64,000 nucleotides of DNA, taken from positions 209,432 through 273,431 of the forward strand of contig JAPLZK010000004.1 in the NCBI GenBank assembly GCA_026395055.1. Reading direction: 5' to 3'. Under the pieces are notes generated by a model, which was not told where the DNA came from, searched no databases, and saw only the letters and a program-made list of their open reading frames with translations. Positions 1,671 through 14,986 of this stretch are shown here, piece after piece. Position numbers and translations under genes: made by a program. Within the stretch, counting starts at the first letter, position 1, and each line of letters opens with the position of its first letter. This DNA is from Candidatus Uhrbacteria bacterium (GTDB taxonomy: Bacteria; Patescibacteriota; Patescibacteriia; UBA9934; GWF2-40-263).

Positions 1671-1686
1671 ATGAATCCCTTACCCC

Positions 1687-1715
1687 TTGCCCCTCGTCCC
1701 TTTTTCCAGTATTCT
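1687..1715 (+). promoter_or_regulatory. promoter TTGCCC-17-TATTCT; miaB transcript probably leaderless
   Basis: The -10 ends 9 nt before the miaB ATG at 1725, and there is no SD. Confidence 0.4.
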
Positions 1716-1724
1716 CGACTCGTT

Positions 1725-3119
1725 ATGCAAGAATCTCAACCAAAATTTCACCTCATTACTTACGGCTGCCAGATGAACAAAAATGACTCGGAGCGCATGG
1801 AGACATTGCTTCATGGGTTAGGATTTGTTTCAACAGATGCTCCGGTAGAAGCAGATTTGATTTTGATCAACACGTGTTCTGTTCGACAACAAGCAGAGGA
1901 TCGTGTGTTTGGAAAAGTGCACGAGTTCGAAGCATTGAAAGAAATAAATCCAAAGCTGATCCTCGGCATTACGGGCTGTATGGCTGGGCGTGATCGAGAC
2001 GGCGTGATTCGCAAAAAGATTCCTGCGGTGGATTTGTATTTTCCTACGGCCGATATGGGGCAGTTACCACGCTGGATCGGTGAACTTCGCCCTGAGCTTG
2101 TAAACAGCACAGATCTTGTAGAAGATTATTTAAAGATTAAACCAGAGCGCAATTCGCTGCGCCAAGCATTTGTTTCTATCCAAACGGGATGCAATAAGTT
2201 TTGTACGTATTGCGTTGTCCCATTTGCAAGAGGTCTCGAGAAGAACCGGTCCGTAAAAGATATTCTCGAGGAGATTACAGATCTCGCTGCGCATGGATGT
2301 GTGGAAGTGACACTACTCGGACAAACCGTGAATAGTTATCTTGCACCGGACGTTGAGAATTTCTCAGAAGGGAATCCGTATCAAAATCATTTTGCAAAAC
2401 TTCTTTGGGAAGTAAACCAGATTCCGGAAATTAAACGATTGCATTTCACGGCTCCACATCCGCTCCACATGACAGACGAGGTGATTGATGCAATGACACT
2501 GCCGGCACACGTGAACTTTATTCATCTTCCTGTGCAGGCGGGTGATAATGAAGTGCTCAGACGTATGAATCGTCGGTACACAATCGAACAGTTTAATGAC
2601 GTCGTATCTCGATTGCGCGCAAAAATTCCAAACCTCGCGATCGGAACAGATATCATTGTCGGATTTTCCGGCGAATCTCCAGAACAATTCCAAAAGACCG
2701 TCGACATGTATCGCGATCTTAAATTCGATATCGGTTATAATGCGCGTTATAGTGAACGCTCAGGCACCGCAGCAAAGCGTGCGTTTAAAGACGATGTGAC
2801 GCAAGAAGAAAAGAAACGTCGATGGAATGAATTACAGGCTGTGATGGAACACGTTGTCCATGAAAAAAACCAACAATATGTCGACGAGGTTGTAAGTGTG
2901 CTTGTCGAAAGACACGAGGCACCAAAGATTACAGATGAGATGCTCGCGATGCCAGAAAAGATTCAAGAGCTTCTCGCGGCACAACCCGGAATGTGTTTTG
3001 GAAATTCGCGTGAGATGAAGCTTGTAACGTTTGCAGGAGGAAAAGAATTGGTTGGGGAGATTGTGGATGTTAAAATAACAAAAGCAGAAACTTGGATTCT
3101 CGAAGGACAACAAACATGA
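1725..3119 (+). CDS. miaB: tRNA-2-methylthio-N6-dimethylallyladenosine synthase (radical SAM methylthiotransferase)
   Basis: ITYGCQMN MTTase N-domain, radical-SAM CNKFCTYCVVP, C-terminal TRAM-like region. The start was moved to the ATG at 1725 (MQESQPKFHLITYGCQMN). Confidence 0.9.
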   Translation: MQESQPKFHLITYGCQMNKNDSERMETLLHGLGFVSTDAPVEADLILINTCSVRQQAEDRVFGKVHEFEALKEINPKLILGITGCMAGRDRDGVIRKKIPAVDLYFPTADMGQLPRWIGELRPELVNSTDLVEDYLKIKPERNSLRQAFVSIQTGCNKFCTYCVVPFARGLEKNRSVKDILEEITDLAAHGCVEVTLLGQTVNSYLAPDVENFSEGNPYQNHFAKLLWEVNQIPEIKRLHFTAPHPLHMTDEVIDAMTLPAHVNFIHLPVQAGDNEVLRRMNRRYTIEQFNDVVSRLRAKIPNLAIGTDIIVGFSGESPEQFQKTVDMYRDLKFDIGYNARYSERSGTAAKRAFKDDVTQEEKKRRWNELQAVMEHVVHEKNQQYVDEVVSVLVERHEAPKITDEMLAMPEKIQELLAAQPGMCFGNSREMKLVTFAGGKELVGEIVDVKITKAETWILEGQQT

Positions 3120-5046: not shown

Positions 5047-6555
5047 CTAGGATTTTAACTTCACAAGCAACATGTTTCTGCTGACTCCTGGATCTGCGGT
5101 TCCTTGGGTTTCTTTCATGACGAGTCCGACAAAGAAGGGGAGTAATTTTTCTTCTCCTGCTTGGTAACGGAGAACTTCTTCTTTGTGTCCTTCAAGGACG
5201 CGATCAACAACGTCTGCAAGTTCACCTGCATCTTGCATAGTACCGAGTTGCAAGTCTTCCATGAGATGTGTTGGAGATTTTCCGTCATCAAGCATGGCAT
5301 TTAAGACTTTGAGTCCCGCGGTTCCGTTTAATTTTGTGGTTGCAATGAGTGTAATGAATTCCGCAAAATAGTTTGGAGTGATTTTACAGGTGCGGATATC
5401 AATTCCGCGTTCCATCATGAGTCCGCCAAGTTTTGAGAGAAGCCAACCAGAGACGAGGCGTGCCATTTTTGGTTTCTCTGTTTCCCAATCAAGGTCGCCT
5501 TCCGTTGTGCTTAACCATTCTTGGAGTTCTGAGAATGTGTGTTCCGCGTAGTCTGCAAGGGTGGGGTCATCACACATTTGCGCGGCGTCAGATGGTTTCA
5601 GTCCGTATTCTTCTGCAAAACGTGCACGACGTGCGGCTGGAAGTTCCGGCATGATGAGTTTGAGTTCCTCTGCGAGATCTGTGAGATTTAGTGGTGGGAT
5701 GTCTGGTTCGGGGAAGTAACGGTAGTCTGCTGCGTCTTCTTTTGATCGTTGTGGCTCTGTGAATCCTTTGACGTCATTCCATCCGCGCGTTGTTGAAACA
5801 ATAACGGGCGTGCCGTCTTCCCAAAGTTTTGTTTGACGTTTGATTTCAAACTCGAGAGCACGTTCCACGTGTCTGAAGGAGTTCATGTTTTTAACTTCTG
5901 TTTTTGGATTGAAGCGTGCGCCAACAATTTGTCCGTCCGCATCAATTTCGCGAAGGGAAATGTTTGCGTCGCAACGCATGTTTCCTTTTTCCATGTCTGC
6001 GTTTGAGATGTCGAGGTAACGCGCAATGCGTTGGAGTTCATGCAAAAACGCTTTTGCTTCTTTTGCATTTGTGAAGTCTGGTTCCGTTACAATCTCGATG
6101 AGAGGCGTTCCGCCGCGATTAAAATCCACAAGCGTTTTTCCTTCTACACCGTGCGTGTTTTTTGCTGCGTCTTCTTCAAGGTGGGCTCGTGTGATTCCAA
6201 AGCGTACGAATGATCGTTCGGAATCTGGAATTTCAACTTCTAGGTATCCATCTGAGGCGATCGGTAAATCGAACTGTGAAATCTGATACGCCTTTGGAAG
6301 GTCTGGATAAAAATAGTTTTTACGATCGAATTTTGAGTGCGAGGCGATTTTACAGTTGAGGGCAAGACCCATCATGGTGCCGAAGCGAATGGCCTGTTCA
6401 TTTGGAACGGGGAGTGTTCCTGGATTTCCAAGACAAATAGCACACACGTTTGTGTTTGGAGACGCGCCAATGTCATGTGCGGGACACGCACAGAACATTT
6501 TGGATTTGGTTTTCAGCTGGAGGTGGATTTCAAGTCCAATCACGGGAATCAACAT
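5047..6555 (-). CDS. gatB: Asp-tRNA(Asn)/Glu-tRNA(Gln) amidotransferase subunit B
   Basis: MLIPVIGLEIHLQL...NPGTLPV...YFPEPDIPP. Full-length GatB homology, 502 aa. Confidence 0.92.
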   Translation of the reverse strand: MLIPVIGLEIHLQLKTKSKMFCACPAHDIGASPNTNVCAICLGNPGTLPVPNEQAIRFGTMMGLALNCKIASHSKFDRKNYFYPDLPKAYQISQFDLPIASDGYLEVEIPDSERSFVRFGITRAHLEEDAAKNTHGVEGKTLVDFNRGGTPLIEIVTEPDFTNAKEAKAFLHELQRIARYLDISNADMEKGNMRCDANISLREIDADGQIVGARFNPKTEVKNMNSFRHVERALEFEIKRQTKLWEDGTPVIVSTTRGWNDVKGFTEPQRSKEDAADYRYFPEPDIPPLNLTDLAEELKLIMPELPAARRARFAEEYGLKPSDAAQMCDDPTLADYAEHTFSELQEWLSTTEGDLDWETEKPKMARLVSGWLLSKLGGLMMERGIDIRTCKITPNYFAEFITLIATTKLNGTAGLKVLNAMLDDGKSPTHLMEDLQLGTMQDAGELADVVDRVLEGHKEEVLRYQAGEEKLLPFFVGLVMKETQGTADPGVSRNMLLVKLKS

Positions 6556-8300: not shown

Positions 8301-8327
8301 TAGGCTTGCCTGCCGGCAGGCAGGGAT
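8301..8327. repeat. GC-rich palindrome TGCCTGCCGGCAGGCA, copy 2
   Basis: Perfect 16-bp palindrome at 8307-8322, directly 3' of dut. Together with copy 1 it brackets paralog B. Confidence 0.5.
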
Positions 8328-8764
8328 TAGTGGCCGGTTGATCCAAAACCACCACGATCTGGTTTCTCGAGCATCTCAACAACGTTAAACGATGCTTTGA
8401 TGATTGGCATGATCATGCCTTGTGCTAGACGATCTCCTTTTGTGACGGTTACGGGGGTGTTTGTGAAATTGATGAGTTGCAGGAGAATTTCGTCATTTGG
8501 CCCACAATAGTCTTCATCAACAATTCCAATACCTTGAACAACCGTAAGGCCGAACTTTTTTGGGAGGGATGAACGAGCCGCTACGACGAGAACGTGGTTT
8601 TGCGGTGTGCAGATAACCAAACCCGTTCGAAGCCGAACGATCTCGCCCGGCGCAATTGTTGCGTTTTCGATGGTTGAGAGATCAAACGCACATGAACCGG
8701 GTGTTTTGTATTCTGGCAAGATGCCGTCAGGATGACATAGAAAGATGTCCACAGGGATGTTCAT
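8327..8764 (-). CDS. dut: dUTP diphosphatase
   Basis: 145 aa with dUTPase motifs (AR.SSL....L...G.ID.DY.G, GDR.AQ, RGGFGSTG). Confidence 0.88.
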   Translation of the reverse strand: MNIPVDIFLCHPDGILPEYKTPGSCAFDLSTIENATIAPGEIVRLRTGLVICTPQNHVLVVAARSSLPKKFGLTVVQGIGIVDEDYCGPNDEILLQLINFTNTPVTVTKGDRLAQGMIMPIIKASFNVVEMLEKPDRGGFGSTGH

Positions 8765-8829
8765 ATGCGCCTATTCTATCAAATTATGCCGATGGCAACA
8801 TCCTCCTCAGTTTGATAGCATGGGGAAAT

Positions 8830-9696
8830 ATGAAAGCGTATCTTGACCTTGTGAATAAGATTCTGGACACAGGAATCGTGAAACCGACCCGTACGGGTAC
8901 GGATACCGTTGCGATTGCTGGCGCCATGTTTGAACATGATATGCGGGACGGATTCCCCATGCTTACAACAAAGAAAGTTCCGTTGCGATTGCCGGCCATT
9001 GAACTCGAATTTTTTTTGAATGGAAAAACAGATAAGGCTTGGCTCCAAGAACGCAATAGTCATATTTGGGACGAATGGTGCGCGCCGCATATTGTTCCGT
9101 ATGGCCACGATGCGGAGACAAAGGCTCGCATGCGCGAAGAGCGTGAACTTGGCCCCATCTACGGATTTCAATGGCGACACTTCGGTGCGGATTACGTCGA
9201 TCATCAAACGGATTATTCCGGACAAGGTGTTGATCAAATTGCAAAGCTTGTTGAAACATTGAAACGAGATCCGCATGATCGACGCATGATTGTGAGTGCA
9301 TGGAATCCGGCAGCGCTTCATCAGATGGCGTTACCTCCTTGCTATTACGGATTTCAGGTCACGGTTTTGAACGGACGAGTGAATGTGCTCTGGAGTCAGC
9401 GATCGGTTGATGTTGCACTCGGTTTGCCGTTCGACATTGTTGCACATGGACTTTTGCTGCATCTCCTCGCAAAGGAATCAGGACTGAAAGAAGGAAGGCT
9501 CGTCGGATTTTTGGGAGATGCGCATGTGTACACGAATCACATCGACGGACTAAGACAACAACTTTCTCGAGAGCCTGCGACATTACCACAGATTCGAACC
9601 GAGAATTTTACATCGATCTTTGATTGGAAACATACGGATACGACCGTCAAGGATTACAATCCGCATCCAAGTATTAAATTTGAGATTGCGATATGA
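8830..9696 (+). CDS. thyA: thymidylate synthase, ThyA-type
   Basis: MKAYLDLV...DRTGTGT-like N-terminus, LPPC active-site Cys, DRRMIVSAWNP. The start is the ATG at 8830. Confidence 0.9.
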   Translation: MKAYLDLVNKILDTGIVKPTRTGTDTVAIAGAMFEHDMRDGFPMLTTKKVPLRLPAIELEFFLNGKTDKAWLQERNSHIWDEWCAPHIVPYGHDAETKARMREERELGPIYGFQWRHFGADYVDHQTDYSGQGVDQIAKLVETLKRDPHDRRMIVSAWNPAALHQMALPPCYYGFQVTVLNGRVNVLWSQRSVDVALGLPFDIVAHGLLLHLLAKESGLKEGRLVGFLGDAHVYTNHIDGLRQQLSREPATLPQIRTENFTSIFDWKHTDTTVKDYNPHPSIKFEIAI

Positions 9697-10196
9697 AGGT
9701 TGAACTTATTGCGGCGATGTCGCTCAACGGCAAAATTGCCGCGTCATCCGACCAGTCTTCACTTGAGTGGACCTCCAAAGAGGACACCAAGTTTTTTGTT
9801 GAAAAAACAAAAGAGTGTCGTGTCATGATTATGGGTCGAAAAACATTCGACACAATCGGTCGTGCATTGAAAGATCGATTGATTGTTGTGATGACATGCG
9901 ATCCTGAGAAACACGCGTTGATCGAAGGGGTTGAATATACGTGCGAGACGCCGCATCAGATTCTTAAGGATCTCGAATCACGAGGATATGCTTCGGTTGC
10001 GATTGCGGGTGGTGCGGGTGTTTACTCGATGTTCTTGAAAGAGAAGTTGGTTACGGATGTATTCCTCAGTATTGAACCGATTCTTTTTGGAAATGGAATT
10101 TCGCTTGCAGAATCGTTTGAAGATGTTAAGCTCAAGCTTGTTGAATCCAAACAGCTAGGAGAGCAAACCGTTCTCCTGCATTACGAGGTTGTATGA
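9693..10196 (+). CDS. folA: dihydrofolate reductase family protein (DHFR / RibD_C-like)
   Basis: 167 aa: ELIAAMSLNGKIA, MGRKTFDTIG, AGGAGVYSMFL. ATGA overlap with thyA. Confidence 0.65.
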   Translation: MKVELIAAMSLNGKIAASSDQSSLEWTSKEDTKFFVEKTKECRVMIMGRKTFDTIGRALKDRLIVVMTCDPEKHALIEGVEYTCETPHQILKDLESRGYASVAIAGGAGVYSMFLKEKLVTDVFLSIEPILFGNGISLAESFEDVKLKLVESKQLGEQTVLLHYEVV

Positions 10197-11095
10197 TCGA
10201 ATATCCTTATCTTCCACCAAATCGTGGATTCAAATTTGTTCCTTTGAATGATCCTCACATGATGGCCGCAGAAGTTGCTCGTCGCGAATGCGCGGGTGAT
10301 TCTCTCTGGCCGATTGGAATTGTTCTTGTTCGCGATGGTGAAATTCTCGCGCGTGCGGGAAACGGATTTAATCGGGGAAGTTCCTCGAAGCACATTTGCC
10401 CTCGCGTTGTTCTCGAATGTTCAAGCGGAACCGGTTACGATCTGTGCAAACTTCACGACTCGATCGGTCACGCAGAACCCATGCTCATGCAAGTTGCGGT
10501 TGACCAGGGAATCGATCCAATGGGGTGCGATGTCTACATGTTCGGTCACTGGTGGTGTTGCGAGCCGTGCTGGAAAGCCATGATCGATGCGGGAGTGAAA
10601 GATGTTTATGTTCTCGACGATGCTCACGAGAGATTCTCTCGTGAGAATGTGTTTGCCGAGACATTAACTTCGAGTGTTCGTTCAATTTTTTTCTCGCATG
10701 CATTCGATCAAACAAACCTCGCGGAGATGAAAGAACTCATTGGCACACTTGATGCGATGTGCGTTGAGCTTGGGTGTTCGACTACCATTCCATTTCGAGA
10801 TGGGCCTCTCGACGAACTCGCGCAAGAACACAACGAAGATGTGTTGTATCGATGGAGTGAACAACAGATTCCAATCTGTGACGTGCTCATCGCCGAAGTT
10901 TCCAATCCATCTCTTGGTGTTGGCGGTGAGATTGTTCTCGCCGAGAAGTTCGAGAAGCCTGTGATTCTTCTTTCAAAAAAGGGAATAAGGGTTTCTGAAT
11001 TTGTGACGGGGAATCCGGCGGTGGTGTACCATGTCGAGTATGAATCGATTATGGATGCGGTGAAGCAAGTGAGAAATGTGTTGAAGCAATTGTAA
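10193..11095 (+). CDS. dCMP deaminase domain fused to a 2'-deoxynucleoside-5'-phosphate N-hydrolase (DNPH1/Rcl, nucleoside deoxyribosyltransferase-like) domain
   Basis: N-terminal half has the zinc motifs HAE...CEPCWKAMIDAGVKDV (cf. PCNECAKLIIQAGIKEV of dCMP deaminases). C-terminal half has SIFFSHAF...LIAEVSNPSLGVGGEI...KPVILL (cf. DNPH1 AEVTQPSLGVGYELG...KPIL). Confidence 0.75.
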   Translation: MIEYPYLPPNRGFKFVPLNDPHMMAAEVARRECAGDSLWPIGIVLVRDGEILARAGNGFNRGSSSKHICPRVVLECSSGTGYDLCKLHDSIGHAEPMLMQVAVDQGIDPMGCDVYMFGHWWCCEPCWKAMIDAGVKDVYVLDDAHERFSRENVFAETLTSSVRSIFFSHAFDQTNLAEMKELIGTLDAMCVELGCSTTIPFRDGPLDELAQEHNEDVLYRWSEQQIPICDVLIAEVSNPSLGVGGEIVLAEKFEKPVILLSKKGIRVSEFVTGNPAVVYHVEYESIMDAVKQVRNVLKQL

Positions 11096-11098
11096 ACG

Positions 11099-11127
11099 AA
11101 AACGACCCATGCGGGGTCGTTTTTTTC
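11099..11127 (+). terminator. intrinsic terminator aaaacgaccc-atgc-ggggtcg + T7
   Basis: Strong hairpin immediately after the TAA at 11093-11095. Confidence 0.7.
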
Positions 11128-11204
11128 TTATGTATGTTGTTGACAATTAGGAATGGTGATGATACATCAGGTTAATCATGAGCGGCAAAAATCGGAGGTG
11201 TGCC

Positions 11205-11549
11205 ATGGCAAGTTCTGCAGATACATTGTGTCCCAAATGTCAGAAAGTCATGAAACTCGTCAAGGAAGATATTCATCTTGATCCCAGCTTTTGCCCGGAG
11301 ATCACGCACGGATTCACGCTGAAGGAAACGCCAACTCTGAAATGCGATGATTGCGATCTGTGGTTTCACACTCCAGATGTTTACGAGAGGCTTTTGAAAG
11401 TCTCTTGCGATCCGGAGGATGTGCAAGCGATGTTGAAAATGCATGAGAACGAATTGCTGATTTTGTTCCGTCGTTTTCCGGAACCCGCAAAGACGAATCG
11501 TTGTCTAACGTGCGGCACAATCATACAAGAAGCAACGCCCTCTCTCTAA
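11205..11549 (+). CDS. hypothetical Cys-rich zinc-ribbon protein
   Basis: CPKC...CDDC...CLTC pairs. The start was moved to MASSADT. Confidence 0.55.
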   Translation: MASSADTLCPKCQKVMKLVKEDIHLDPSFCPEITHGFTLKETPTLKCDDCDLWFHTPDVYERLLKVSCDPEDVQAMLKMHENELLILFRRFPEPAKTNRCLTCGTIIQEATPSL

Positions 11550-11570
11550 CATCCGCACGTGGATGTTTTT

Positions 11571-13166
11571 TTATTTCAATATCTTCGCCTTCCTCAACAC
11601 CTCCCTCGGCGTATCCTTATATGGATGCAGTTTCCCCAGCGCCTTCAATGCCTGTTCCTTCGTAATAAATCCAACCGTGACTTCGCGCGCGAGTCTCGTA
11701 CTGTCCGGATGAAACCCAAGCAGGCGCTTTGCCATGCGCTCGGTGGATCGTGCAAACAGACAGGAGTTCGAATTCGATTCAATAAAATCTTCGCCGACGG
11801 GTGGTGTCCATCCAATTTTTTTCAACATCGCTTTTGTTTCTCGACTGGTTCGTTGTAACAGAAACGGAAGATGAAACACATACACAGCCGGTTTGTTTTT
11901 ATACGGTTGTAATTTTCTGACACCTGAAACTTTATATTCTTTTCCCGATTGCGCCGCACTCAAGTTTGTCCACTCGTTGATTCCAAGAACGATCGCGCGT
12001 GCACCGCGTTTCAGTGTCTCGTCATAATATGCGCGAATCACCATGCGACGACAAAGCTGGCAGGTGCGCACGAAGATTGGTGAATGTTTACACTTCACGG
12101 AATAATGTTTGCGTCCTTCTGCGTACGCTTTTTGAAACGCAAGCTTTGTCTCGAGTGTGAAGGGTTTCTCGTAAAGTGCGACGGTCTTCTCGTACGAAGC
12201 GTGATCGATTGGTCGAATGTAAGAGCGAATGTCGATCTCCTCGTGCGGAGTCTCGAGTAGCTTCGCCATTTCTTTTGATCGCGGCATAGTCGTGCGTGGA
12301 AGATATCCAAGATTGAATGTGACGGCGAGGGGATTGAATCCCATTTGTTTGATCGAAAGCAATGTGGCTGTGCTGTCTTTGCCGCCCGAGAGTCCGACGA
12401 GAATGTCGTGGTCATTCGATCCGGTACCGATGAAGGATTCAAGAAACTCGAGTTCTTCTTGCAAATGTGTTGGGTCGAAATGTGTTTGATAGGTATCGCA
12501 AATATGACAGAGGCCATTTTTCATGAACCGAATTGCGGGATTGCGCGCGGTGTTCACACAGTGTGTACACATTTGGTTCCATTGCTTAATGGTGTCTTCA
12601 ATGAGCTTGGCTGATCGATCTATACTCATTGTAGTTGTGTCGATTACAAGATTCGCGATCTTCTCAATTTGTTTTGTTTGATAAAGCACTTGTTCTTTTT
12701 TGAGTTCATCGACGGCTTGTTGTTTTGTATATCCGCGAGATTTCATTAAGCGACGAATGGCCGTTTGGTCGTCGACTTTGAGATAGACAACGAAGTCGTT
12801 ATGCAATCGACAATACTTTGCGTTGTCGATTCCGCGCAATCCACTAAAGACAAGCGTGGGTTGTTTTGAGTTCTCGAGAAATAACTCATGCAGAGCGCGT
12901 GCAATAAAGTCCGCACCATATTTCAATCGCAAGCGATCAAACATGTTCATGGCGTCTTCGCGAGATGCAAATGATTTGCGTTTCGAGAGTTGTCTCAGTT
13001 GTTCGATTAGCGTTTCCTCGTTCGGTAATTTCTTAACATGCGCAGCGATGGGGAATACGACCGCAGTCGAGGCTTCGATCACGCGCGCATGTAATCGCTC
13101 GGCAATGTTTTGTGCGAGTGTGGATTTTCCACTTCCAGGTTGTCCGAAGAGGGCGATGCGAATCAT
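11571..13166 (-). CDS. fusion protein: N-terminal P-loop nucleotide-kinase-like domain + zinc finger + PP-loop ATP pyrophosphatase domain (TtuA/NcsA/TtcA-like tRNA sulfurtransferase family)
   Basis: GQPGSGKSTLA Walker A at the N-terminus. CTHC...CHIC zinc finger, then the SGGKDS PP-loop, then C...CQLC and a later Cys as candidate Fe-S ligands. Confidence 0.7.
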   Translation of the reverse strand: MIRIALFGQPGSGKSTLAQNIAERLHARVIEASTAVVFPIAAHVKKLPNEETLIEQLRQLSKRKSFASREDAMNMFDRLRLKYGADFIARALHELFLENSKQPTLVFSGLRGIDNAKYCRLHNDFVVYLKVDDQTAIRRLMKSRGYTKQQAVDELKKEQVLYQTKQIEKIANLVIDTTTMSIDRSAKLIEDTIKQWNQMCTHCVNTARNPAIRFMKNGLCHICDTYQTHFDPTHLQEELEFLESFIGTGSNDHDILVGLSGGKDSTATLLSIKQMGFNPLAVTFNLGYLPRTTMPRSKEMAKLLETPHEEIDIRSYIRPIDHASYEKTVALYEKPFTLETKLAFQKAYAEGRKHYSVKCKHSPIFVRTCQLCRRMVIRAYYDETLKRGARAIVLGINEWTNLSAAQSGKEYKVSGVRKLQPYKNKPAVYVFHLPFLLQRTSRETKAMLKKIGWTPPVGEDFIESNSNSCLFARSTERMAKRLLGFHPDSTRLAREVTVGFITKEQALKALGKLHPYKDTPREVLRKAKILK

Positions 13167-13195
13167 AAGTAGTTTTTAAGATATCATGAATGAAA

Positions 13196-13229
13196 AAAGA
13201 AAACGACCCAAAGCGGGTCGTTTTTTTTA
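13196..13229. terminator. bidirectional intrinsic terminator aaaacgaccc-aaag-cgggtcg + T8
   Basis: Hairpin flanked by A and T runs. It sits 3' of dcd on the minus strand. Confidence 0.7.
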
Positions 13230-13883
13230 CAGTTTATATTTATTTTTCATTTCCCCAAGCGTTCCTTTAACAAGGTGTTGTCTCTCCTCATCCTTATCGA
13301 GCTTGTACGCCCCTGAATCAATGTTCGTATACTTTGCAGCACTCACGCCGTGGAGGTTTGCTTCTTCGATCGACAGCGACGACGCGAGTTCTTCGAAAAT
13401 CACCTGACACACACGTTCACCTGGGTACACACGAATAACTTGGTTGCCCGCTTCGTTTTTCATGGGAAAAATCAGATGGCCTTTGTAGCCGTTGTCGATA
13501 ATTCCGGAGAGGGAGAGATCAATCCCTCTTCGATTGGTCGATGTACGAGGAAACAGAATCGCCATCAGGTTTGGCGCATTGATCTCGACTGATTCAAGTG
13601 AAGTACCGATCACGAATTCGTTTGGGAGGAGCTCAAAAAATTGTCCGGGTTTCAAAATAACTTCTTCGAACTGTTCGCGATGACGTTCAACATCATCGAT
13701 AGAAATGTTAATGGCGCGTCGACCCGATTCATCAATCACCCAGTTTTTGGGAATCAGAAATTTATAGCCAAGTCGAAGATCAATGGCATGTGGTTGTAAT
13801 TGGAATGCATCAATCTCGGGATCAAAGGTGATTTCATGTTTCTCGATAGCAACCAGAATTTCGTGTTTTGTTAATACAGACAT
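13227..13883 (-). CDS. dcd: dCTP deaminase (Dcd/dUTPase-fold)
   Basis: N-terminal ILVAIEKHEI.F.P....QLQPHAIDLRLGYKF and GIIDNGYKGHL motifs. Confidence 0.8.
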   Translation of the reverse strand: MSVLTKHEILVAIEKHEITFDPEIDAFQLQPHAIDLRLGYKFLIPKNWVIDESGRRAINISIDDVERHREQFEEVILKPGQFFELLPNEFVIGTSLESVEINAPNLMAILFPRTSTNRRGIDLSLSGIIDNGYKGHLIFPMKNEAGNQVIRVYPGERVCQVIFEELASSLSIEEANLHGVSAAKYTNIDSGAYKLDKDEERQHLVKGTLGEMKNKYKL

Positions 13884-13936
13884 AAATCAGAGAATAGACG
13901 AGGTCTTTAGACCCCATATGTAGACAAAGGGTATCC

Positions 13937-13966
13937 TGGCGGTCATAAAAAGAAAAGAGCATCCGA
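13937..13966 (-). terminator. minus-strand intrinsic terminator gcatcc-actc-ggatgc + U-run
   Basis: Lies directly 3' of the short ORF 13974..14147. Confidence 0.45.
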
Positions 13967-13973
13967 GTGGATG

Positions 13974-14147
13974 CTAGCTGGGGACAGAATCTTCTGCTTT
14001 GGGTTTTGGAACACAACGACGTTCGAGATGCTTCAGGCGTTCTGTTGCGAGATAGGCTTCTCGACGCGCTTTGAGATCGCGCAATACTTCGGGAATGATA
14101 TCGCGAATATGTATGGGGCCACGACCACGTTCCGATTTATCCGCCAT
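13974..14147 (-). CDS. short ORF of 57 aa (MADKSERGRGPIHIRDIIPEVLRDLKARREAYLATERLKHLERRCVPKPKAEDSVPS), below the ORF-track size cutoff
   Basis: AGGAG SD 5 nt upstream of the ATG (14147-14145). TAG stop at 13976-13974, followed at once by a terminator hairpin. Basic and helical, so possibly a small DNA- or RNA-binding protein. Confidence 0.45.
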   Translation of the reverse strand: MADKSERGRGPIHIRDIIPEVLRDLKARREAYLATERLKHLERRCVPKPKAEDSVPS

Positions 14148-14160
14148 GAGACTCCTGTGG

Positions 14161-14200
14161 TTCCCCCGCCTTCACAAGGAGGGGGTTAGGGGGTGGTCAG
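14161..14200. repeat. REP-like hairpin element, copy 1, on the minus strand, overlapping the tmk stop
   Basis: The reverse complement reads ctGACCACCCCCTAACCCCCTCCTTGTGAAGGCGGGGGAA. Copies 2 and 3 are at 37718-37765 and 62452-62488. Confidence 0.5.
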
Positions 14201-14911
14201 TAGTTCTGAGATGAGTGCTACGGCGTTTGCTTGCGACTCTTCCAGTGTTTTGCTTGTATCTAATGTGTGAATCTTTGTTCCGTGTGACTCGAACAGCTCG
14301 CGAAACCAAGGTTCGCGATAACGTGCGTCTACACGACGCGCGAGTTCAACGTCCGCAAACACACCTGCTGCGCCTTGAGATGCAGGACGCAATCGAATGC
14401 GATCCACAACGCGTTCAACAGGTGTTGAAGTCAGAATGAGGTGATGAGGTGCGTGTTCAAGAGCGAGTTTGTTTCCCGGAAGATTCAAAATCTGCTCGAG
14501 TGACAAGCTGTATGGCTGGATTGGCTGATAAATGATCGACGTTGAAACGCCACGATCTTGCACGACGGTCTTACCCGCCTTGAGAGCGGGAAGAATCAAT
14601 CGGAGATACATGATTTGGCGATCAAGGGCGAATGCGTGTGCGAGCTCTTCACCCCCATACGGATGTTCCGTTTGCGACATTTCCTCTCGGAGTGCTGCAC
14701 CAATCCATTGTCGAGTAGGTTCAAACACAAAGTACACATCGAAATCCGCGATCTCTGCGAAGGTTGGTGGACGTTCACCTTTCCAGTCTTGTAAACGGAA
14801 ACAGCGCAAGCCTTTGGCTTGTAGCGTGTTGAACATTGCTTGAATGACGGTGGTTTTGCCACTGCCAACAATGCCGTCGATGAGAATGAAGTTGCCGGTG
14901 TTCATCAGCAT
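14186..14911 (-). CDS. tmk: thymidylate kinase-like (d)NMP kinase
   Basis: FILIDGIVGSGKTT P-loop and a Tmk-like DR(G) segment. The start was moved to MLMNTGNF, downstream of the rplA terminator. Confidence 0.7.
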   Translation of the reverse strand: MLMNTGNFILIDGIVGSGKTTVIQAMFNTLQAKGLRCFRLQDWKGERPPTFAEIADFDVYFVFEPTRQWIGAALREEMSQTEHPYGGEELAHAFALDRQIMYLRLILPALKAGKTVVQDRGVSTSIIYQPIQPYSLSLEQILNLPGNKLALEHAPHHLILTSTPVERVVDRIRLRPASQGAAGVFADVELARRVDARYREPWFRELFESHGTKIHTLDTSKTLEESQANAVALISELLTTP

Positions 14912-14952
14912 AGGCCTTGTGTGCATGACGCACGACAAAAGTGTACAAAACA

Positions 14953-14986
14953 AAAAACATCCGCGCAAGGCGGATGTTTTTTGTTT
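14953..14986 (-). terminator. intrinsic terminator aaaaaacatccgc-gcaa-ggcggatgtttttt
   Basis: Immediately 3' of the rplA stop on the minus strand. Confidence 0.65.

Follow-up and report, generated by a model that had tools for sequence, protein, structure and literature searches.

A kinase-like domain fused to a NASAT/CtaC-like PP-loop enzyme in CPR bacteria and DPANN archaea: family placement and a possible role in nucleotide metabolism

Bacteria belonging to the candidate phyla radiation (CPR) and archaea of the DPANN group depend on scavenged nucleotides, and much of their conserved protein content is without known function. A contig of a Candidatus Uhrbacteria bacterium (GenBank assembly GCA_026395055.1, contig JAPLZK010000004.1) carries, within the 64,000-nucleotide stretch analysed here (positions 209,432 to 273,431; hereafter the window), a gene for a 531-residue protein that joins a P-loop kinase-like domain to a zinc ribbon and a PP-loop domain. 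This locus raises two questions: to which PP-loop enzymes is the protein related, and on what substrate does it act? A first-pass annotation likened it to the tRNA thiolases TtuA and NcsA. The analysis presented here places its C-terminal domain, by sequence, as a sister of CtaC-like and NASAT enzymes rather than of TtuA. It leads to a tentative proposal, held with somewhat less than even confidence: a bifunctional enzyme that, with ATP and the help of an Fe-S cluster, would replace oxygen by sulfur in a free purine nucleotide at the node of 5-formamidoimidazole-4-carboxamide ribonucleotide (FAICAR) and inosine monophosphate (IMP), its kinase domain either making the nucleotide substrate or phosphorylating the product; the gene would have an accessory role. 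Relative to the known PP-loop enzymes of Fe-S-dependent oxygen-to-sulfur exchange, the architecture is new and the substrate class probably so.

Integrity and domains of the fusion protein

The fusion of kinase and PP-loop domains is a real, conserved two-enzyme architecture. The gene has a G+C content of 46.8%, against 45.8% for the window, and a 100%-identical protein (P0001, Candidatus Uhrbacteria) is on record from a 339-kb contig. Homologues fall into 319 clusters (almost all of the 120 listed are full-length, at about 511-584 residues), and the fusion is present in 53 of 84 non-redundant metagenome loci. An AlphaFold2 model built from 113 homologues is one confident chain (predicted local distance difference test, pLDDT, 93.4; predicted template modelling score, pTM, 0.88). 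The first-pass annotation had allowed that the N-terminal domain might be a separate gene joined by a frameshift or an assembly error; the identical protein, the continuous reading frame, the conserved linker, the hundreds of full-length homologues and the single-chain model rule this out. The three-part anatomy that it described (P-loop kinase-like domain, CxxC...CxxC zinc ribbon, PP-loop) is correct, with all of the listed motifs present. Its interval of 11205-13166 spans two genes, of which the enzyme alone occupies 11571-13166 (Table 1). It was also right that the fusion is not standard for TtuA, TtcA or QueC; the architecture is not unique to the window, and defines a conserved family in ultra-small organisms, CPR bacteria and DPANN archaea.

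Table 1. Coordinates of the fusion gene, its domains and motifs, the adjoining hairpins and IMP cyclohydrolase-linked relatives
Feature	Residues	Coordinates	Strand	Basis or remark
531-residue fusion gene		11571..13166	minus	complete open reading frame including stop, ATG start; list of open reading frames
N-terminal AdkA/UPF0200-like P-loop nucleoside/nucleotide-kinase-like domain	1-195	12582..13166	minus	
Walker A GQPGSGKS	8-15	13122..13145	minus	translation
C-terminal catalytic domain, zinc ribbon and PP-loop, NASAT/CtaC-like clade	196-531	11574..12581	minus	
Four-Cys zinc ribbon C200-x2-C203...G-L-C220-x2-C223		12498..12569	minus	matches NASAT motif CxxCxn[GN]xCxxC
PP-loop SGGKDS, ATP alpha-beta pyrophosphatase/adenylation motif	260-265	12372..12389	minus	
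C369-Q-L-C372 in R-x-C-x-x-C-R, first two putative [4Fe-4S] ligands		12051..12062	minus	
C469 in N-S-C, third putative cluster ligand		11760..11762	minus	
Arg-rich family signature GFHPDSTRLAREVTVGF near C-terminus	484-500	11667..11717	minus	
Strong terminator-like hairpin, 11-bp stem then T-run, between upstream dCTP deaminase gene and fusion gene		13200..13224	minus	terminator scan
Hairpin in 21-nt gap between 3' ends of enzyme gene and convergent zinc-ribbon reading frame		11548..11567		terminator scan and sequence
IMP cyclohydrolase-linked examples, PurH N-domain without AICAR transformylase domain		L106 2631-4244; P0270-P0273, P0121; L013, L060, L072, L119, L139	minus (L106)	

In an alignment of 113 fused sequences, the four zinc-ribbon cysteines, SGGKDS, C369, C372 and C469 are invariant, and the Walker A residues G8, P10, G11, G13 and K14 are kept in at least 90%. 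By translation, the later cysteines of the protein are C359, C369-x2-C372 and C469; C359 is kept in at least 90% of the fused sequences and is missing from many stand-alone relatives. The Arg-rich signature is kept in all fused and stand-alone members and served as the motif by which about 100 metagenome loci were recovered (this motif required NSC...FHPD, and divergent members are under-sampled).

The N-terminal domain belongs to the P-loop nucleoside monophosphate (NMP) and nucleoside kinases (AdkA/UPF0200-like, Cytidylate_kin2, AAA_17/18) by its Walker A motif, its fold and Pfam scores above the gathering threshold. Among structures it is matched best by a kinase with bound AMP and next by CMP kinases and CoaE; weak similarities to KTI12 and PSTK were also found. 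On sequence and model it is a competent-looking kinase domain. An intact Walker A motif and the AMP ligand of the best match make up its likeness to the SSO1041/UPF0200 AdkA-like kinase (PDB 3LW7, 3H0K), CMP kinases and CoaE; SSO1041, however, is a stand-alone protein without a described function in the literature, whereas the domain considered here is part of a fusion. A literature search found no paper on the family, on the fusion or on the function of SSO1041/UPF0200, and the names that members bear in databases ("AAA family ATPase", "shikimate kinase", "QueC") are uninformative. Membership of a known defence system was rejected: PADLOC gave a generic P-loop match (VakA, 2.8e-9) for the N-terminal domain and nothing for the PP-loop domain.

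Family placement and the cysteine triad

The C-terminal domain carries SGGxDS at the start of a Rossmann-like fold, as in the PP-loop ATP pyrophosphatase (adenine nucleotide alpha-hydrolase) superfamily, and its PP-loop was aligned to those of TtcA, MJ0690, TtuA and NASAT. Enzymes of this superfamily convert ATP to AMP and pyrophosphate and adenylate a carbonyl oxygen of the substrate. In TtcA, TtuA and CtaC, a three-cysteine site holds a [4Fe-4S] cluster whose free iron presents hydrosulfide.

None of the curated models covers residues 196-531. The best NCBIfam match is NASAT (TIGR03573), with 63.6 bits against a cut-off of 203.2 over residues 198-288 (model positions 2-97 of 344). With the TtuA model NF049949 the score is 20.7 bits, far from the cut-off of 450, and the match covers residues 251-315 only; Pfam ATP_bind_3 is absent among the best 25 of 37 Pfam matches. 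No cysteine follows C469, and the C-terminal zinc finger of the TtuA/NcsA type is not present. The earlier assignment of the PP-loop domain to this type is contradicted by both the score and the missing finger. QueC, which had been named as a competing family outside tRNA modification, fares no better: TIGR00364 gives 24.4 bits against 150.3, the Pfam QueC model gives 22.0 bits, equal to its cut-off of 22, over residues 255-318 (the PP-loop region) only, and the QueC-type CxxCxxC motif is not present in the 531-residue protein. Assignments to QueC, NAD synthase and GMP synthase were all rejected, as only the PP-loop region matches. Judged from sequence and predicted fold, the nearest relatives are non-tRNA enzymes: zinc-ribbon PP-loop proteins of the NASAT/CtaC-like kind, whose substrates are small molecules or amides bound to carriers.

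The zinc ribbon is one mark of this relationship. For LpNASAT, a zinc motif CxxCxn[GN]xCxxC with bound zinc has been described (PMC10607449), and C200THC...NGLC220HIC followed by SGGKDS fits this tetracysteine motif ahead of the PP-loop. NASAT enzymes (WbuX/WbpG/PseA/LpNASAT; PDB 8WEX) share the motif in the same place, right before the PP-loop, but lack the cysteine triad and the kinase fusion; they belong to O-antigen and flagellin-glycan loci, where they turn N-acetyl groups of sugars into amidines.

The triad itself (C369, C372 and C469, within RxCxxCR and NSC) is also invariant in every stand-alone or differently fused relative. In an hhalign comparison with E. coli TtcA (probability 95%), C369xxC372 falls exactly on C122xxC125, the residues that ligate the [4Fe-4S] cluster of TtcA (PMC4081106), and C469 sits in the equivalent region after the beta-strand and helix. 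Comparison of the C-terminal domain with the triad-bearing CtaC-like group, in which zinc ribbon, PP-loop and three cysteines are invariant, gave a probability of 100% (E 4.5e-43, 304 columns) with all motifs in register; C369 and C372 align with the invariant C143 and C146 of that group, and C469 with its invariant C271. Mutagenesis of CtaC has tested residues D77, S78, C154, C157 and C284, and [4Fe-4S]-dependent thioamide synthesis has been shown (PMC6772006); the third cysteine lies at +209 from the PP-loop in the present protein (C469) and at about +211 in CtaC (C284). These alignments support the triad as putative [4Fe-4S] ligands of the TtcA/CtaC type, and bear out at sequence level the earlier suggestion that the later cysteines resemble Fe-S ligands of TtuA/Ncs6-type enzymes.

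CtaC, from the closthioamide pathway of Ruminiclostridium cellulolyticum, is thus matched, by its published residues, in the N-terminal zinc site, the PP-loop and a three-cysteine motif with its third cysteine about 210 residues past the PP-loop. By analogy, the two would share a mechanism, in which adenylation of the amide oxygen is followed by attack of a cluster-bound sulfide. CtaC differs in having a carrier-protein-bound peptide substrate and in belonging to thiotemplate clusters, a context without counterpart in the present family. The family, for its part, has about 25 extra residues before CxxC, its own motifs (RxCxxCR, GxNEW, NSC and GFHPDxTRLxR), and a fused or linked kinase or IMP cyclohydrolase.

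With the NASAT-like fold comes a rival to sulfur insertion, and the main one: an amidotransferase, in which ammonia would replace the oxygen of an adenylated nucleobase or amide carbonyl, as in NASAT, GMP synthase and TilS. The cysteines are against it, as no known PP-loop amidotransferase has a three-cysteine site. Five NASAT-like neighbours scoring above the NASAT cut-off were tested, and none has the mid-domain CxxC (74-86 residues past the PP-loop) that is present in the CtaC-like subgroup and in the present family, and LpNASAT has no cysteine at the positions aligned to the triad. The NASAT-like neighbours below the cut-off all carry the mid-domain CxxC and a later cysteine near the position of the third ligand.

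A second rival is the reading of the first-pass annotation: a TtuA/NcsA/TtcA-like thiolase of tRNA (or rRNA), with the P-loop domain as an RNA-binding or KTI12/PSTK-like accessory module. The weak KTI12/PSTK similarity of the N-terminal domain and an Arg/Lys-rich C-terminal region would suit it, and TtuA, TtcA and NcsA share with the family a PP-loop, a CxxC...C site and, as in TtuA, an N-terminal zinc finger. These enzymes, however, have a GH(H/N)xDD region where the family has GxNEW. Beyond the low score and the missing second finger, the nearest relatives act on small or carrier-bound molecules.

Partner genes and candidate substrates

By genomic association the family goes with nucleotide enzymes rather than with genes for tRNA or sulfur carriers. 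Full-length family sequences comprise 220 kinase-fused, 41 stand-alone and 7 fused to an IMP cyclohydrolase (IMPCH)-like domain, counts that include some redundancy and truncated gene calls (a few of the 41 are probably truncated calls). The IMPCH-like domain (the PurH N-domain; MGS and AICARFT_IMPCHas) is fused to the C-terminal domain in at least six protein clusters, and the PP-loop domains of these fusions are 60-70% identical to the kinase-fused ones. In 5 of 17 stand-alone loci, the very next gene is an IMPCH-like one for about 198 residues; it is translationally coupled, the gap being -13 to +2 nucleotides. These IMPCH-like proteins retain the catalytic Lys, Tyr, Asp and Lys of PurH. 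Their phosphate loop, STGGT, is changed in most (usually to SLKT, SLGN or STRGT), which hints at a different substrate. Further tightly linked partners of stand-alone members are HAD phosphatase, NUDIX, NADAR and Tmk-like kinase genes, and a Ham1/ITPase gene lies on the same strand in 4 of the 53 kinase-fused loci, directly adjacent in 3 (neighbouring reading frames were called by a simple longest-frame rule). Because the partners are enzymes of free nucleotides (IMPCH, Ham1, NUDIX, HAD, Tmk, Udk-like), a free nucleotide is favoured over tRNA as the substrate; the strongest partner signal points to the FAICAR/IMP node, and none to tRNA. A tRNA thiolase is also hard to square with lineages in which the N-terminal domain is swapped for an IMP cyclohydrolase, and the sporadic distribution of the family is unlike that of core tRNA-modification enzymes. 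With the recurrent nucleotide-metabolism partners also against it, that rival is quite unlikely.

The proposed exchange of oxygen for sulfur would proceed as follows. As expected from the superfamily, the C-terminal domain would use ATP to adenylate the carbonyl oxygen of the substrate. A [4Fe-4S] cluster on C369, C372 and C469 would deliver sulfide, and the activated oxygen would be replaced by sulfur; this is the most likely second step, because the three-cysteine site of TtcA, TtuA and CtaC is kept. To judge from the fusions and neighbourhoods, the substrate would be a free purine-type nucleotide: either IMP, converted to 6-thio-IMP, or 5-aminoimidazole-4-carboxamide ribonucleotide (AICAR) or its formyl form, thioamidated at the carboxamide before ring closure. 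The kinase domain may make the NMP substrate from a nucleoside, or may phosphorylate the product from NMP to the diphosphate. The interchange of kinase and IMPCH modules admits two options. Both could produce IMP (by a nucleoside kinase or by cyclisation of FAICAR; compare Ham1, which yields IMP from ITP), or both could follow the PP-loop step. As a biological role, the supply of a modified (thio)nucleotide to salvage, antagonism or defence would fit better than a function in core translation.

A precedent for PP-loop thiolation of a free nucleotide is YcfA, of the YcfA-YcfC 6-thioguanine system of Erwinia (PMC12494993), which adenylates GTP at the expense of ATP and turns its 6-oxo group into a thio group. 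The resemblance is one of chemistry: YcfA works through an L-cysteine adduct and a pyridoxal phosphate-dependent C-S lyase and is a tetradecamer, and neither the abstract of that paper nor a search of it by terms brought up an Fe-S cluster or a fused kinase.

The amidotransferase described above has nucleotide variants of its own, namely amination of IMP or (F)AICAR to AMP, of XMP to GMP or of UMP to CMP, after which the fused kinase would make the diphosphate. It would amount to a one-protein salvage shortcut where de novo pathways are lacking. A path from IMPCH (yielding IMP) through the PP-loop domain to an AdkA-like kinase whose best match binds AMP suits the series IMP to AMP to ADP, both CPR bacteria and DPANN archaea generally depend on salvage, and sulfur-donor genes do not recur near family loci. 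Nor was a glutaminase partner seen near family loci, however, and the family, with about 320-440 clusters at 90% identity and 51 at 50%, is rarer than would suit a central step of salvage. Together with the cysteine evidence, this leaves amination unlikely. A claim that spans both chemistries is possible, if on the doubtful side: a reaction without precedent on free purine nucleotides at the FAICAR/IMP node, with an interchangeable kinase or IMPCH module supplying or draining substrate, that would amount either to thiopurine (6-thio-IMP type) synthesis or to a PurA/PurB-independent conversion of IMP or (F)AICAR to an adenine nucleotide.

A third rival has the enzyme act on a nucleotide sugar, or on some other amide that is not part of a nucleobase, destined for the cell envelope or a secondary metabolite. 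The reaction would be amidination as in NASAT or thioamidation as in CtaC, and the kinase would work on the sugar or on a precursor. That the family shares a clade with NASAT and CtaC-like enzymes is consistent with this, as are the relatives embedded in nonribosomal peptide synthetases (NRPS) just outside the family and the stand-alone members that lie beside genes for UDP-glucose/GDP-mannose dehydrogenase, AMP-binding enzyme, radical SAM, NTP_transferase, glycosyltransferase and phosphoglucomutase. Each such context, however, is an isolated case, drawn from the more divergent stand-alone members (45-53% identity), and the kinase-fused and IMPCH-linked majority is without glycan or thiotemplate genes. 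The 84 non-redundant family loci contain no peptidyl carrier protein or NRPS genes, and one locus has an AMP-binding enzyme gene. The window likewise has no O-antigen, glycan or thiotemplate context, its genes there being those of nucleotide metabolism and the ribosome, and only two divergent stand-alone relatives lie near sugar-nucleotide genes. This rival, too, is quite unlikely.

Several points weigh against oxygen-to-sulfur exchange on a free purine nucleotide. About 40 of the 53 kinase-fused loci have no informative neighbour, and because most are uninformative, the IMP node is carried over to them from the IMPCH-linked and stand-alone forms. Some divergent stand-alone members lie beside genes for UDP-glucose dehydrogenase, an AMP-binding enzyme, radical SAM and a MetRS paralogue; these sugar-nucleotide or thiotemplate-like neighbours suggest that substrates may differ within the family. 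No recurrent sulfur donor (cysteine desulfurase, or ThiS/TtuB-like carrier) was found near family loci, and the neighbours of the fusion gene in the window are enzymes of pyrimidine deoxynucleotides, not of purines. Fe-S binding is predicted from sequence alone, and the label "CtaC-like" stands for motif spacing, zinc/ATP/Fe-S architecture and the presence of NRPS-embedded members, with CtaC represented by its published residues, not its sequence. We know of no physiological use of thiopurine nucleotides in these organisms.

If the proposal holds, nucleotide metabolism in CPR bacteria and DPANN archaea would gain a new class of enzyme, and the reaction would be the first in which a free purine nucleotide is thiolated with the help of an Fe-S cluster (or else an amination of a new kind). 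The CtaC/NASAT clade, which acts on peptides and sugars, would then take in nucleotides as well, and these organisms could prove to make thiopurines naturally or to have a new shortcut of salvage. A single chemical module (PP-loop adenylation with a TtcA/CtaC-type Fe-S site) appears joined to nucleotide handling in three ways: by a fused kinase, by a fused or coupled IMPCH, and by neighbouring "house-cleaning" enzymes. The fusions provide a short list of candidate substrates, and the database names of the family are corrected.

Other architectures accompany these. An 878-residue variant (P0136; L034 1717-4353) has an APH/TCAD9 protein-kinase-like N-terminus ahead of P-loop and PP-loop domains, and its flanks form an apparent defence island (ThsB-TIR, TIR_2, Nmad2, LD_cluster2, UDG-like, MazG_C and MqsA/RelE); given this variant, the activity proposed here might, if real, offer a new route to antimetabolite or immune nucleotides. 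In Streptomyces thermocoprophilus (L015 7965-9891), a stand-alone member overlaps a downstream Udk/PRK-type kinase gene by 4 nucleotides. The kinase was rejected as a split form of the N-terminal domain, as only Walker A is common to the two; the association is analogous, not homologous. The pair lies directly beside a DDE transposase gene and therefore looks like a mobile two-gene cassette in an actinomycete. Just outside the family, zinc-ribbon PP-loop domains occur inside four very large proteins of 1631-5376 residues (P0190, P0218, P0229 and P0242), which are candidate in-line thioamide-forming enzymes; in P0190, an NRPS, the PP-loop domain separates the core of the adenylation domain from its C-terminal part.

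Distribution and surroundings in the window

A profile search with the C-terminal domain against 1.84 billion representative proteins recovered a discrete family (51 clusters at E < 1e-30), below which there is a sharp drop and then NASAT-like proteins, some inside NRPS megasynthases. Members are labelled Uhrbacteria, Sungbacteria, Harrisonbacteria, Vogelbacteria, Yanofskybacteria, Paceibacterota, Woesearchaeota, Nanoarchaeia and Micrarchaeaceae, with divergent stand-alone copies in a Streptomyces and in a metagenome-assembled genome of Clostridia. Copies with bacterial and archaeal labels are 63-64% identical, and the family is small for the diversity of the CPR, which argues for an accessory gene that moves horizontally. 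The family thus appears to be a sporadic, solitary accessory gene exchanged between CPR bacteria and DPANN archaea. A phage origin is unsupported, as IMG/VR yielded no family member and BFVD no full-length analogue.

Kinase-fused loci (seven look-ups and the 53 metagenome loci) have the gene as a solitary one in varied surroundings, with no dominant neighbour. A conserved operon was rejected, as only Ham1 (4 loci), an XRE-type helix-turn-helix gene (4) and GIY-YIG (3) recur; the small helix-turn-helix gene overlaps the start of the kinase-fused gene in its 4 loci.

The wider window is that of an ordinary bacterial chromosome (SecE-NusG-L11-L1, GyrB, GatB, enolase, UvrD, DinB and a MiaB-like enzyme). 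A compact deoxypyrimidine/thymidylate cluster (8327-14968) adjoins the SecE-NusG-L11-L1 string on its downstream side, and the fusion gene sits among its dUTPase, ThyA, DHFR, dCMP deaminase (a fusion), dCTP deaminase and Tmk-like kinase genes. Only one 85%-identical relative shares the gene order with dCTP deaminase, Tmk, dCMP deaminase and DHFR. The hairpin at 13200..13224 argues against simple read-through from the dCTP deaminase gene, and co-transcription with the nucleotide cluster is doubtful: strong hairpins flank the gene, and the synteny is restricted to close relatives.

The small neighbour of the enzyme gene is an open reading frame on the plus strand at 11205-11549, of 114 residues (or 123 from 11178), with the Cys pairs CPKC, CDDC and CLTC. 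The first-pass annotation described it as lying on the divergent side and as a possible sulfur carrier or partner analog. It is in fact convergent with the enzyme gene, tail to tail and 21 nucleotides apart. A tblastn search of about 34 related loci, the syntenic 85%-identical relative included, found no homologue, and the idea of a partner or sulfur carrier is therefore unsupported and was rejected. Clustering of the 84 loci gave no recurrent small Cys-rich reading frame, and Pfam and NCBIfam returned only sub-threshold noise. The frame may encode a small zinc-ribbon protein particular to this lineage; otherwise it is not a gene.

Two near-identical GC hairpins, AAAACGACCC-loop-GGGTCGTTTT, lie at 11098-11124 and 13200-13224; the hairpin has these 2 copies in the 64 kb, against 0 expected by chance. 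They are the terminators of the dCMP-deaminase and dCTP-deaminase genes, and they bracket exactly the orphan reading frame and the 531-residue gene. In the relative L005, the same interval holds different extra reading frames, with one hairpin copy at 5820-5838. Insertions may thus vary at this spot.

The gene at 10193-11095 (plus strand) encodes a dCMP/cytidine deaminase domain (residues 24-140) followed by a C-terminal half that resembles nucleoside 2-deoxyribosyltransferase, with a Pfam score of 26.2 bits, just under the cut-off of 28.8. The L005 deaminase gene encodes only 185 residues, of which the first 161 match the window protein, so the deaminase-deoxyribosyltransferase fusion may be lineage-specific. 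At 1671-3119 (plus strand), the window encodes a MiaB/RimO-type methylthiotransferase (UPF0004, radical SAM and TRAM), which indicates that the organism makes Fe-S enzymes and performs sulfur insertion.

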